From positions 590,185 through 654,184 of the forward strand of contig CP064984.1 in NCBI GenBank assembly GCA_016699615.1: a DNA stretch of 64,000 bases, in the 5' to 3' direction. The DNA is from Sphingobacteriales bacterium. Lineage in GTDB: Bacteria > Bacteroidota > Bacteroidia > Chitinophagales > JADIYW01. The notes under the pieces were generated by a model. That model searched no databases. It was not told the DNA's origin and saw only the letters and a program-made list of their open reading frames with translations. Shown in pieces: positions 8,013-58,225 of this stretch (position 1 is its first letter; every line of letters starts with the position of its first letter). Both the position numbers and the translations under genes were made by a program.

Positions 8013-8919
8013 ATGAAAAGACTAATTGTATTAAGTACCTTATTGTTTATGATATTATGTAGAGTATCATCACAAGACCTAATAATTAAGAATGATAAAA
8101 CTGAACTTAAATCAAAAATAACAGAAGTATTAAGTTCTGAGATTAAATATAAAAAATGGGAAATGTTAGATGGACCAATTTATACTATAAACAAAACAGA
8201 TATTTTCATGATTATTTATCAAAATGGCACAAGAGAAACATTTGAAACTGCTAAGAAAATATCAAATACAAACCAAGAGATATTAATTACAGAAGGTAAT
8301 ACAACAGCAAGCAAAAATAAAAACAAAGCTCCTGTAGATTTAGCAATCACATTTATGCCCAAAAATAAATTTGTAGCAAAACCAACTAAAGAACAAAGAA
8401 AAGATAAAGAATTTTTAAAAGAATATGCTAAATCAACAGCCGACAGGTCTGTCTCTTTTGGAATAAATTTAATGAATATAGGAAAATCAACAGTTCCAAC
8501 AATTATGTTCTTAACTGATGTTACTATAGCAAAAAACATTGCAATTACTTGGGGTTTTGGTTTTAATTATCATAGAGAAAAATTTTCTGGATATAAGTAT
8601 TCTATGTTTACTTATTGGTTACCAATAGGTGCTGTTTATTACTTCAACCAACTTTAAAAATAAAAAACAAAAAGCATCCTTATATGCAGGAGTACTTTTA
8701 ACGCCATCTATTTCTTCAATAAATATTAAATCAGATGAGACATATAGTTATAGTTCATCATCTTCTTCATCGAGTAAATTCAATTTTAACGGAGGTTTAA
8801 GAGTAGGCGCAAGTTATAATTTCGTAAAGAAATTTGGAGTATATGCTGACATATTAGTTGGCAAAGGAAGACCTGGAATCCTTGTGGGTTTAAAATTATC
8901 AAATTTTAGAGAAAAATAA
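8013..8919 (+). pseudogene. secreted outer-membrane beta-barrel-like protein, interrupted by a +1 frameshift as sequenced
   Basis: ORFs 8013..8657 and 8629..8919 lie in adjacent frames. Removing one T from the T3 run at 8653..8655 joins ...YYFNQL to KNKKQKASLYAGVLL.... The protein has a signal peptide and a C-terminal alternating-hydrophobic barrel-like end (GVYADILVGKGRPGILVGLKLSNF). Confidence 0.5.
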
Positions 8920-8950
8920 AATTCATTATTAACAAATAAAAATAATTATC

Positions 8951-9706
8951 ATGAAAAAATTAACGTATTTAATCATTACAACAATCACAGCTATCTTATT
9001 CATATTTGTAGCTTGCAAAAAAGAAAAAGAAGCAACAATTTCTGCTCAAGAATTAAGTGAAAAGATTACAATCGAAGGTGCTAGTAGAATAAAAGGAAAT
9101 ATACCAGTACCTGATGGTGGAGAATATGGAACAAGTATAGAAATATATACAGATGAAATTATTGTAGAAGAAAATAAAACATCATTTGATGTAACTTTTG
9201 AAGGAATTGAAGATAAGAAAATAGCATATTTTAAAGTTGATGGTTCTGATGATTATTTTGAACTGGAATTGGATGAGTACGGTTCCATTGCTTCAAGAAT
9301 TTCAGATCTCATAAAAGAAGAACAGAAATACATAGGTTTTTGTATTTTTCCTGGTACTCCAGTTCAAAGACAAGTAACTGTGCAATTCTGCAAAATACCA
9401 AAAAATAAAACAAAAGCAGAAGCAAAAGCAAACAAGCAAAACTGGTGTACGCCAAAAAATATAAAATTTCAATGTATTTATAATAAAACTGGAAATTGTA
9501 GCGAAGCAGATATACAAGCAGCTACAAACAAATTGATAAGTTTAACCACTACATTTCAAAACAATCCAACAAATAGTAATTGCAATGCTGTAAAAGCAGC
9601 AGCTATGCAACTATTACAACAAATGAAAAATTGCAATATAGATGATGCTTCACTTACTCAAGCTGCAAATGCATGGAATGGAGTTGATTGCTCTCTACTT
9701 AATTAA
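8951..9706 (+). CDS. lipoprotein, Cys-rich C-terminal domain, unknown function
   Basis: Lipobox FVAC. There are 9 further Cys residues, 7 of them in the last ~100 aa. Confidence 0.6.
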   Translation: MKKLTYLIITTITAILFIFVACKKEKEATISAQELSEKITIEGASRIKGNIPVPDGGEYGTSIEIYTDEIIVEENKTSFDVTFEGIEDKKIAYFKVDGSDDYFELELDEYGSIASRISDLIKEEQKYIGFCIFPGTPVQRQVTVQFCKIPKNKTKAEAKANKQNWCTPKNIKFQCIYNKTGNCSEADIQAATNKLISLTTTFQNNPTNSNCNAVKAAAMQLLQQMKNCNIDDASLTQAANAWNGVDCSLLN

Positions 9707-9724
9707 TTTAATATTTTACAACAA

Positions 9725-9761
9725 TAGTGTATAGCAATCAAATGCTATACACTATTTTTTT
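9725..9761 (+). terminator. Rho-independent terminator
   Basis: Perfect 12-bp stem (tagtgtatagca / tgctatacacta), a 6-nt loop, then T7. Confidence 0.85.
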
Positions 9762-55938: not shown

Positions 55939-55945
55939 ATAATCA

Positions 55946-56602
55946 TTATTTTATTATGATTGGATCACCTAAAAAATGTGCTTCTGTATTTAAAATATAT
56001 AAGTCTAAAAATAATTTTACTCTTGCCAATTTTTCTCTGAAGAAATTATAAATTCCTCTATTTGGATCAACATCGTGTGCATTGAATGCAATAGCATCTA
56101 AATTAAATTTATTGGCAATAACTAATGCTCGTTTGTTGTGAAATTCTTGAGATATGATGGTTACTTTATTTTGTTTAAACACTTTTTTGCAACGTATTAC
56201 TGAGTCGTGTGTTCTAAATCCTGCAAAATCTAAATATAATACAGAATCTGGTACGCCTAATGCTAAAAATGCTTGTCTAAAATCTTCTGGTTCGTTGTAT
56301 CCATGCCAGCCATTATCTCCACTAATTAATATTCTATCTATTTTTTTATTTTTCCAAAGTAAGTATGCTGCATCTAATCTGTGTTGCCAAAATGGATTGA
56401 TGGTTACTTTATCTTTTAGTGTTTTGCACGTACCCAGTAGTAATCCAACTCTATTGTATGGTATTGAATCTACATTACTATATAATTTGTGGTTAGAAAA
56501 TTGTTCAACTTTGTTATTACAAAAAATTATTATAGCAATAAGTAGTAAAAAAGATGGAATGTATAAATAGATAAATAGTTTTTTGCTAAAAATTTTCTTC
56601 AT
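55946..56602 (-). CDS. sanA: SanA/DUF218-family membrane-anchored protein
   Basis: [47 protein letters not shown] matches the SanA core. Confidence 0.75.
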
Positions 56603-57723
56603 TATTTTATTTTATAGAAATATTTTAATTGTGTTGATAATGGCATTGATGCATATTTGAAGAAATTAGATTTATAATCTACATTATTTTTTTCTAGCAA
56701 ACGAACTAAGTTGACACCTGTTGCACCAAAATAATGTTTTGCATCTGTTATTGATGTATAGTCTTTGGCAGTATTAATACTATAGCCATCATATATATTT
56801 TCTTTTTTATAATATTTATCGTTGGTTAATAGATATTCATTAACTGGAATTTTAGCAAAATTTTCTTTTAAGATGGCATCAATATATAGTGCTGTGCCTT
56901 CTAGTTTTTCCCATATTTCTTCTATTGGTCCTATTGTAATTTTCTTTTGCTTATAGAATTCAGATCTTCTTTTGGTTCTTGTTTTAAGAAATTCTGTAAA
57001 GTATTTTTTTTCTTCTTCTATTGATTTTGCATTTATCGCTTTTAATAACAAATCATTTTCTTTAATCAATGAATCTTTAAAGCTCCAATTGTTTTCATAG
57101 ATGCTTTGCATACTATCTTTAGTAAGCATTCTATTTTGTTTGATGAAAGAATTTAGGTAATTGTAGATGGCAGTTTCTTTGAACTGATATTGATGGTATA
57201 ACTCATGAAATACGCTTGTAGCCCAATCTTGTGTATGTACTAATTCTGGTTGTAATTCTGCTGATATTTCTGGTGAGCTACAAAATAAAATAGGCAACAT
57301 ATAGTTGATATTTTTCTTATTTCCATCTTCTGTTTCAAAGACTGTTTCTATGATATATGTTGGCACATCGTATGGTGTTGCCAATTTTAAAACATTATAA
57401 TCATATTTATTATTTATTATTTTATACTTAGATACTTTATCTCAAACACTTGGTTCTGGATTGATGAAATAAGCATTGGAATCTGAAAAATAAACCGTGG
57501 TACCTACAAACTCATTTGCTGCAAAATCTTTCCAAAATAGATTACCTGCAAATCTTCTAAGGTCATTTAAGTATTTAATTCTTTCTATGATTAAAACTTC
57601 CTTTTCTGTTGGTTCTATTAAATCATCAATAGAAATGTTGTTATTTTGCGCAAAGCTCATTGAACAAAATATGGACAAAAGCATTGTACAAAATGTATTT
57701 GTTATTTTAGAATAGATATGCAT
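56602..57723 (-). pseudogene. secreted HExxH-motif protein (putative Zn-metallopeptidase) interrupted by an in-frame TGA
   Basis: ORFs 57741->57442 and 57384->56602 are in the same frame, separated by a TGA at 57442..57444 and 19 sense codons. There is a signal peptide (…CSMSFAQ) and the FHELYHQ motif. Confidence 0.5.
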
Positions 57724-58225
57724 TTTCAATTTCATTTTCAATAAATTTTACAATTATATGTTCGTTGAATGTTGTTGCCATTTGTAAGCCAACAATATCT
57801 GATTGAATTGGAAATTTTTTGTGCGTTCTATCTATCAACACACAAGTAATAATTTGTTTGATATTGAAATTTACCAACTTTTTAAAAGCATAGAACATTG
57901 TCTTTCCTGTATTTGCTACATCATCAACTACAACGATAACTTTATCTTGTAGATTTTCTACCATCGATAATTGTATTTCTTCAGAAAGTGGATTTTGTTT
58001 GTTGATGTACAATGATGCTAATTCTATTTTCTTATTGGTATCATATTTATGAATAATGCTTTTAAGTTTTTCTGCCAAAATAAATCCACCATCTGCAATA
58101 CCTAATAGGACAACTTCATTGGTATGAAATGTTTTTTCTAGAATTTGAAATGCAATTCTATCTAGTTTTAACAACGCAACTTTCTTGTCTAAAATAATCT
58201 GAGCGTTTTTAGGAATAATCATCAT
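57707..58225 (-). CDS. phosphoribosyltransferase-family protein (PyrR-like)
   Basis: PRPP-binding loop VIVVVDDVANTGKT. 172 aa. Confidence 0.7.
   Translation of the reverse strand: MMIIPKNAQIILDKKVALLKLDRIAFQILEKTFHTNEVVLLGIADGGFILAEKLKSIIHKYDTNKKIELASLYINKQNPLSEEIQLSMVENLQDKVIVVVDDVANTGKTMFYAFKKLVNFNIKQIITCVLIDRTHKKFPIQSDIVGLQMATTFNEHIIVKFIENEIENAYLF

Follow-up and report, generated by a model that had tools for sequence, protein, structure and literature searches.

The stretch of DNA analysed here, called the window throughout, comprises 64,000 nucleotides of a Sphingobacteriales bacterium (NCBI GenBank assembly GCA_016699615.1, contig CP064984.1, positions 590,185 to 654,184 of the forward strand), and the assembly that carries it is an activated-sludge metagenome-assembled genome (MAG) made of one 2,986,948-bp contig with locus tags IPK18_*. 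The window is coding-dense, with 26–33% guanine plus cytosine (GC), and seven breaks are visible in its reading frames, namely in dnaX, in ctaD, and in the genes of an OMP-like beta-barrel protein, a helical-repeat protein, a VanZ-acyltransferase, a histidine phosphatase and an HExxH protein. Pfam confirms the identities of dnaX, ctaD (with COX1 in both halves), the histidine phosphatase and the VanZ/Acyl_transf_3 gene. The original prediction had counted all seven genes as disrupted, and each of them is indeed interrupted at or within a few bases of where it had placed the break, although dnaX carries no lesion. We found that the seven breaks are two unrelated things: six of them are faults private to this one assembly, and the remaining one belongs to a recoded dnaX gene, whose locus is laid out as follows.

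28670..29809, minus strand: dnaX open reading frame (ORF) 1, 379 amino acids, gamma-like, with DnaX domains I–III, ending in ...GEKKN-stop one codon past the A run
28674..28683, minus strand: A10 run of dnaX (T10 on the plus strand), within GGC GAA AAA AAA AAC TAA, the proposed slippage site
28032..28733, minus strand: −1-frame ORF of dnaX, 233 amino acids, the tau-specific C-terminal part, deposited at NCBI as "hypothetical protein" QQR98521.1

ORF1 matches the Pfam models DNA_pol3_delta2, DNAX_ATPase_lid and DNA_pol3_gamma3 within residues 9–364 of its 379, and exactly this protein (NCBI QQR98522.1) is found on 12 independent contigs. Past the run, a stop follows after 1 codon in the zero frame and after five in the +1 frame, and the −1 frame stays open for ~213 codons. 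Inserting one A into the run gives a fused DnaX of 592 amino acids, with the gamma/tau junction peptide ...LGEKKKLKLLLER..., which matches the NCBIfam gamma/tau equivalog NF011531 over positions 1–614 of 614 at 693 bits (cutoff 685). The −1-frame tail, ...KFDLTLDA, resembles the tails of full-length relatives; the tau C-terminal part has no Pfam match at useful E-values, and a weak precomputed match to DUF8439 is listed for it.

Most of the evidence on all seven sites comes from 31 contigs found by exact-protein look-up, which align to the window at 99.1–100% identity, jointly cover 50.2 kb of its 64 kb, and come from JGI metagenomes, the ENA activated-sludge assembly DRR046817, Logan run-level assemblies and two NCBI MAGs. 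For dnaX, 10 independent near-identical contigs were compared (12 are on record), and in all of them the A10 run and the pair of 379- and 233-amino-acid ORFs are identical, with no indel in the run in any of the 10. The A10 at 28674..28683 and the change of frame there had therefore been correctly seen beforehand, but the lesion claimed for this site falls away, since a site identical in 10 independent contigs is not one. Outside this population, among the matches listed when one genome per GTDB species was scanned, the closest species are Chitinophagales MAGs, with DnaX 80% identical, and the A10, a tau in the −1 frame and the usual kind of tau tail are found together in five other Bacteroidota species, namely two Chitinophagales MAGs (L022 and L023), a Flavobacteriales MAG (L056), a Bacteroidota MAG (L085) and a Raineya MAG (L087). 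Between L022 and L023 the run is unchanged, and the ratio of non-synonymous to synonymous substitution rates (dN/dS) is 0.14 in the −1-frame part and 0.017 in the N-terminal part, with dS of 1.4–2.0 being near saturation. To judge from these values, the −1-frame part is under purifying selection, and we regard dnaX as an intact and presumably recoded gene, not as a lesion.

It could still be argued that dnaX is truly split, the 233-amino-acid ORF being either translated separately as a tau-C protein or a decaying remnant, given that NCBI annotates two separate proteins and that the ORF listing of the window shows its −1 frame open for ~21 codons upstream, with a TTG there. In L022 and L023, however, a TGA directly 5′ of the run closes the −1 frame, and therefore the change of frame has to occur inside the run and an independent start is unlikely; moreover, for at least the first 19 codons after the run their −1 frame contains neither ATG nor GTG nor TTG. 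The purifying selection apparent on the −1 ORF likewise speaks against a remnant or a split, as does the presence of the same A run within one continuous ORF in 54 related species. The tau C-terminus of DNA polymerase III functions through its tethering to the clamp-loader domains, which also counts against a separately made fragment, and altogether we consider a genuinely split dnaX highly improbable.

A survey of 80 Bacteroidota species (L022–L101) puts the site of the window in a wider context. An A9–A11 run lies at the gamma/tau boundary (dnaX codons 356–395) in 60 of the 80, and tau is in the genomic frame at 54 of these 60 loci, with A9 in 23, A10 in 29 and A11 in 2. At 51 of the 54, both non-tau frames close within 10 codons, which is the arrangement of Thermus thermophilus dnaX, where gamma reportedly arises by transcriptional slippage at A9; tau lies in the −1 frame, as in the window, at 5 of the 60 loci. 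The A run occupies all three codon phases across the surveyed loci, and the Thermus-like slippage layout looks close to phylum-wide in Bacteroidota. Within the window itself, A/T runs of at least 9 nt are not enriched (3 observed vs ~7.5 expected under an independent-base model), so that what sets the dnaX run apart is its conserved position and not its statistics. The other ten-nucleotide run of the window, at 54103-54112, is A10 on the plus strand and T10 on the gene strand, and sits 10-20 nt inside the 5′ end of a 91-amino-acid ORF (53847-54122, minus strand) also present among the gene calls of the sister contigs.

As to how two products could arise, standard decoding of dnaX stops one codon past the A10 and gives the 379-amino-acid gamma-like clamp-loader subunit. 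Realignment of RNA polymerase on the A10/T10 tract would produce a share of dnaX mRNAs with A11, or with A8 or A14, and these shifted messages would enter the −1 frame and yield the 592-amino-acid tau, with a C-terminal part that would serve as the tether for polymerase core and helicase. Messages with A9 or A12 would end in ...GEKKTKITS-stop and give a second gamma-like form. In a less probable alternative, ribosomes would shift −1 on the A_AAA_AAA of dnaX. The architecture, the conservation and the coding signature of the gene are observed directly; the slipped transcripts and the tau:gamma ratio would follow by analogy with Thermus thermophilus dnaX.

Two points weigh against polymerase realignment: for dnaX genes of this reversed type slippage is argued by analogy, and the zero frame holds a perfect X_XXY_YYZ heptamer with the zero-frame stop directly after it, as expected if tau were made by −1 programmed ribosomal frameshifting on A_AAA_AAA or A_AAA_AAC, with the logic of E. 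coli and its polarity reversed. The run of L085 ends in A_AAA_AAG, and the review of Atkins et al. 2016 calls the reversed type possibly ribosomal. A conserved downstream stem-loop at the usual spacing is nevertheless missing in six species, where the folds are weak, and no relevant Rfam family, the DnaX frameshift element included, matches at E<=10. The run is also kept at 9–11 nt in 60 species though 7 would suffice, and it is found in all three phases. We favour RNA-polymerase realignment over a −1 ribosomal frameshift because the runs measure 9–11 nt when a ribosomal site needs 7, because they occupy all three phases, and because there is neither a conserved 3′ stem-loop nor an Rfam match; the ribosomal explanation thus seems to us rather unlikely. 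On the 5′ side of the run, a stable hairpin stands directly next to the A10 in L085 (CCGCATCGGCCGATGCGG, -11.1 kcal/mol, z -2.3), and in L087 a hairpin CCTCC...GGAGG adjoins the A10; these 5′ hairpins recall the stem-loop-stimulated transcriptional slippage of insertion sequence (IS) elements, and the window has no such hairpin.

Genes with this layout have been described before. Antonov et al. 2013 (Nucleic Acids Research, NAR 41:6514) reported a two-ORF dnaX type in 17 genes from 12 genera, nine of them with exactly ten A's, for which transcriptional realignment was proposed by analogy with T. thermophilus, a point repeated in the review of Atkins et al. 2016; Supplementary Figure S3 of the former shows Flavobacterium johnsoniae, F. 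psychrophilum, Cytophaga hutchinsonii, Capnocytophaga ochracea, Chlorobium species and others. As in those genes, ORF1 with domains I–III ends in the window just past ten A's at the gamma/tau boundary, ORF2 in the −1 frame is collinear with the tau C-terminal part, and the arrangement is conserved in independent genomes. There is no essential difference, the window adding another species, in which the zero-frame stop comes directly after the run (AAC TAA), and by its layout the dnaX of the window belongs to this already described two-ORF A10 type.

Other known systems resemble it in part. With Thermus thermophilus dnaX it shares the long A run (at least 9), the same domain boundary, the nearby stops in both non-tau frames and the making of two products from one gene, but in Thermus tau is encoded in the genomic frame (as it also is at 54 of the 80 Bacteroidota loci) and gamma is what slippage produces, whereas the genomic frame of the window encodes gamma, and the essential tau would need slippage. 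The −1 frameshift of E. coli dnaX (A_AAA_AAG, with a 5′ Shine–Dalgarno-like element and a 3′ stem-loop) concerns the same gene, boundary, −1 direction and a lysine-codon slippery tract; the window differs in its heptamer, A_AAA_AAA or A_AAA_AAC, in having no conserved 3′ hairpin or Rfam match, and in the reversed polarity of its products. Frameshifts in poly(A) tracts of Buchnera and Blochmannia are said to be rescued by polymerase infidelity, and the likeness, slippage on a long A tract that restores the frame, holds for dnaX only. Those host-restricted genomes have many degraded genes, whereas here dnaX is the only one with a long tract, which looks like an ancient conserved device, and the other six sites of the window have no slippage-prone tract (runs of 1–7 nt) and are intact in sister assemblies. 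Rescue by polymerase slippage, one of the explanations offered originally, therefore survives as a mechanism for dnaX alone, and there as something conserved and apparently programmed, not as the repair of a lesion.

For the annotation this means that the 379-amino-acid protein and the "hypothetical protein" should be merged into one recoded gene, and the reversed dnaX architecture gains a Chitinophagales-type lineage. An essential tau that depended on non-standard decoding would, in addition, make the locus a natural test of the slippage efficiency needed from an A10.

It is also possible, and we hold the matter to be evenly balanced, that the dnaX site is one state of a phylum-wide recoding switch whose genomic phase flips repeatedly between lineages. 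The 54 loci may then represent a state with tau templated and gamma made by slippage, and the five loci plus the window a state with gamma templated and tau made by slippage, and a Bacteroidales clade without a tract appears to have replaced it by a +1 block. This last group consists of 13 Bacteroidales-type dnaX loci that have neither an A run nor another homopolymer, three in genomes and 10 on metagenome contigs with diverged flanks.

L037 at ~4100-4150, L068 at ~4070-4126 and L079 at 4124-4150: genome loci with the candidate +1 block
L129, L133, L136, L158, L166, L183, L187, L190, L196 and L225: metagenome contigs with the candidate +1 block

The block reads (GCN or GTC)_AGG_CAA_TCR_CRG_GAG_YG, and the zero-frame stop comes 0-2 codons later. 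ORF1, wherever its start is included (three of the contigs begin only within the gene), has 375-383 codons, and the tau part, of 198-273 codons, lies in the +1 frame and has a normal tail, e.g. ...LNFRIKD. The position of the stop varies relative to the block, and therefore the shift site is probably inside the block, so that NNN_AGG_C in Bacteroidales dnaX is a candidate programmed +1 frameshift. Yeast Ty1 and Ty3 have similar hungry-codon +1 sites, and we found no description of an NNN_AGG_C +1 frameshift in Bacteroidales dnaX in the literature searched. If the switch were real, the tau:gamma ratio in Bacteroidota would be set by at least three interchangeable recoding devices.

The remaining six breaks are of a different nature, and they lie in the following genes.

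8013..8919, plus strand: OMP-like beta-barrel gene, with two private 1-nt deletions, T4>T3 at 8653-8655 and A7>A6 at 8662-8667
11353..12743, plus strand: helical-repeat gene, with one base missing at or next to T5 12099-12103
25720..27235, plus strand: VanZ / Acyl_transf_3 gene, with one extra T, TT at 26766-26767
32229..32839, minus strand: histidine phosphatase (His_Phos_1) gene, with A4 at 32320-32323, A5 elsewhere, and the C-terminal ~20 amino acids lost
37156..38960, minus strand: ctaD (COX1), split into 132 and 473 amino acids, with one A missing after 38597
56602..57741, minus strand: HExxH protein gene, with an in-frame TGA at 57442-57444, a private T>G ending a T4 run (gene strand)

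Five of these six genes are whole in 1–10 independent assemblies that are 99.1–100% identical to the window. Within the covered 50.2 kb, the private indels of the window are exactly five, at 8653, 8662, 26766, 32319 and 38596, all of them gene-breaking, and the covering contigs disagree with the window in 1/1, 1/1, 4/4, 4/4 and 9/9 cases, respectively. Counting the sixth gene, the faults amount to five 1-nt deletions (one of them, in the helical-repeat gene, inferred), one 1-nt insertion and one T>G, and the deletions thus outnumber the insertions by five to one. A further apparent pair of indels, at 58387/58391, we dismiss as an artefact of the BLAST alignment, given that both alleles encode YDTLFGG through synonymous codons.

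The OMP-like gene, which gives weak, sub-threshold matches to the OMP_b-brl models of Pfam, is whole in L102, a contig 99.78% identical to the window, where it encodes 302 amino acids (P0047, 99% identical). Compared with L102, it had not gained a T at 8653..8655, as first proposed, but lost two bases 9 nt apart, in a surrounding stretch with 1 substitution in 1354 bp. The VanZ-acyltransferase does have an extra T, but it lies in the TT at 26766-26767 and not in the T3 at 26761-26763, and four of four other assemblies have a single T there and the whole 504-amino-acid gene. For the histidine phosphatase the prediction of one missing base in the A4 at 32320..32323 was borne out: A5 and a whole gene of 203 amino acids are found in all four other assemblies, and the 182-amino-acid shortened form is annotated as QQR98524.1. 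In ctaD a base is missing, as had been claimed, but it is an A after 38597 and not a T of 38592..38594, since all nine other assemblies have GTAATGG and a whole COX1 of 601 amino acids. The in-frame TGA of the HExxH gene at 57442..57444 is present as described, and the ten other assemblies all have TTA (Leu) and a gene called at 352-377 amino acids; the fragments are annotated as QQR98547.1 and QQR98548.1. Recoding of the TGA at 57442 was considered and rejected, given the TTA of all other assemblies.

The helical-repeat gene, and also the OMP-like one, belong to a stretch that is peculiar to the strain.

5924..12743, no strand assigned: strain-specific island of 6.8 kb and ~25–26% GC, missing from L021

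L021 joins window position 5923 directly to 12744. The cargo of the island comprises a LuxR-type regulator, lipoprotein-like ORFs, the OMP-like gene, a trypsin-like peptidase and the helical-repeat gene. The right half of the island recurs in diverged form, at ~70% nucleotide identity, on L103 and L104. A protein search gave no near-identical copy of the helical-repeat gene, whole or broken, and a metagenome scan of its T5 site allowing a variable gap matched no contig; this gene has no near-identical reference because it lies on the island. The shift zone spans ~13 nt, and adding one T to the T5 gives a helical-repeat protein of 463 amino acids whose alignment to 12 homologues of 457-472 amino acids (best identity 69%) is free of gaps, in agreement with the base originally thought to be missing from 12099..12103. 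L103 and L104 are continuous through the break site.

In the frameshifted genes the second frame opens shortly before the first one closes in each case, as the original prediction had observed, and its judgement that the breaks are recent or artefactual holds for these six sites and not for dnaX. Its statement that six breaks sit at homopolymer runs is true in a loose sense, the runs of the intact versions being 1, 2, 4, 5 and 7 nt long, with ~6 nt inferred for the helical-repeat gene.

No other assembly among the several samples compared carries any of the lesion alleles, so that the lesions are private to one assembly and not common to the lineage, as pseudogenes of a decaying genome would be. 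The early accumulation of pseudogenes in a host-restricted lineage, which had been put forward as one explanation, is not supported, this same population having intact genes in 1–10 other activated-sludge assemblies. The private substitutions of the window help to tell errors from mutations, given that they fall into two classes, 19 clustered and 8 isolated. The clustered ones form two tracts, 44367-44406 with 8 substitutions in an NrfD/ActC-like gene and 58311-58415 with 11 in an acyl-CoA thioesterase gene; 16 of the 19 are synonymous and the remaining three are I/V/L exchanges, and the tracts have the appearance of patches introduced by gene conversion or recombination from a diverged allele that has passed through selection. 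The isolated ones are non-synonymous in 7 of 8 cases (K>T twice, G>A, P>L, K>R, G>C and L>stop), compared with 3 of 19 for the clustered ones (Fisher p = 0.0009), and 4 of the 8 interrupt an A/T run of at least 4 nt found in every other assembly (p = 0.012). Three are identical in kind, a T>G inside a T4 run, one of them being the TGA of the HExxH gene. Outside the tracts, the window differs from its sisters by 5 indels (6 with the inferred one of the helical-repeat gene) and these 8 substitutions, and the private changes there look unfiltered by selection, a pattern characteristic of residual consensus error at ~Q35.

We consider it very likely that a 3-Mb MAG from activated sludge in a single contig is a long-read assembly, and probable that the six breaks are consensus errors left behind by incomplete polishing of such an assembly. 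Sequencing prone to homopolymer errors, the first of the explanations proposed, thus fits the six sites best, as they are private, deletion-biased and accompanied by substitutions that look unselected, and it does not fit dnaX.

Several points weigh against this reading. The IPK*/QQR* records presumably belong to the Nanopore MAG set of Singleton et al. 2021, but the locus tag of the window's MAG did not turn up in the supplements of that paper (PMC8012365). The A/T runs of 8–10 nt in the covered regions, the dnaX A10 included, all agree with the short-read assemblies; the faults are found at runs of 1–7 nt, unlike the classic length-dependent nanopore pattern unless polishing was patchy; and the helical-repeat break has no near-identical reference. 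Since the long runs are correct, polishing must, if these are errors, have been patchy rather than absent, and faults at short runs next to correct long ones suggest patchy short-read polishing and not an unpolished consensus. The methods of Singleton et al. 2021 (PMC8012365) describe a pipeline of CANU, Racon, two Medaka rounds and one Illumina Racon round. The homopolymer indel errors of long-read (Nanopore) assemblies (Watson & Warr 2019; Sereika et al. 2022) are reportedly, as here, 1-nt, deletion-biased, at A/T runs, and split conserved genes; in further likeness to such errors, the present faults are private to one assembly and missing from the short-read assemblies of the population, and they differ in sitting at 1–7-nt runs with 8–10-nt runs correct.

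The six private lesions might, on the other hand, be real mutations of this Danish-type strain, either early pseudogenisation or the mark of a recently bottlenecked clone. The strain is truly distinct, with its 6.8-kb island and its two tracts of mostly synonymous differences, its 8–10-nt homopolymers match the short-read assemblies and so its consensus is not grossly homopolymer-poor, and natural 1-nt indels likewise prefer short runs. Against real mutations stand 5 private indels to 8 isolated substitutions in ~50 kb outside the tracts, a ratio of indels to substitutions that far exceeds natural ratios in coding DNA. Every indel strikes a gene, ctaD among them, and two of the deletions lie within 9 nt of each other in a single gene; the excess of non-synonymous changes among the isolated substitutions, with the same T>G-in-T4 change three times, and the lack of IS elements or of anything else in the window that would signal genome decay point the same way. 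A mismatch-repair mutator was considered and rejected, given that transversions make up 5 of the 8 isolated substitutions and that the long runs show no change. We therefore deem real mutations an unlikely source of the six lesions and keep to residual consensus error as the preferred explanation.

The consequence is that six genes of a public MAG are split or shortened in the deposit, four of them demonstrably as protein fragments at NCBI, where the proteins of the window's private alleles and gene fragments run from QQR98502 to QQR98550 (tags IPK18_0294x-0319x). The six broken genes should be treated as probable assembly faults and not as evidence of genome decay. In a more general sense, public near-identical metagenome contigs can tell assembly faults from programmed frameshifts without recourse to the reads.

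Split genes also occur in other assemblies of the population: in L014 (NCBI MAG GCA_035909515.1), one of four tandem Acyl_transf_3 genes, at 2205-3457, is called as 245 plus 176 amino acids, and the same gene has 417 amino acids in the sister contigs. A Peptidase_M61 gene is hypervariable near its 5′ end (window 22189-22800), with more than 20 substitutions in 600 bp compared with L001 and L002. The alignment of L001 ends at window position 22189, and the far end of that contig, 18725-18826, matches window 22189-22290 once again, which suggests a rearrangement or a strain breakpoint at the Peptidase_M61 region.

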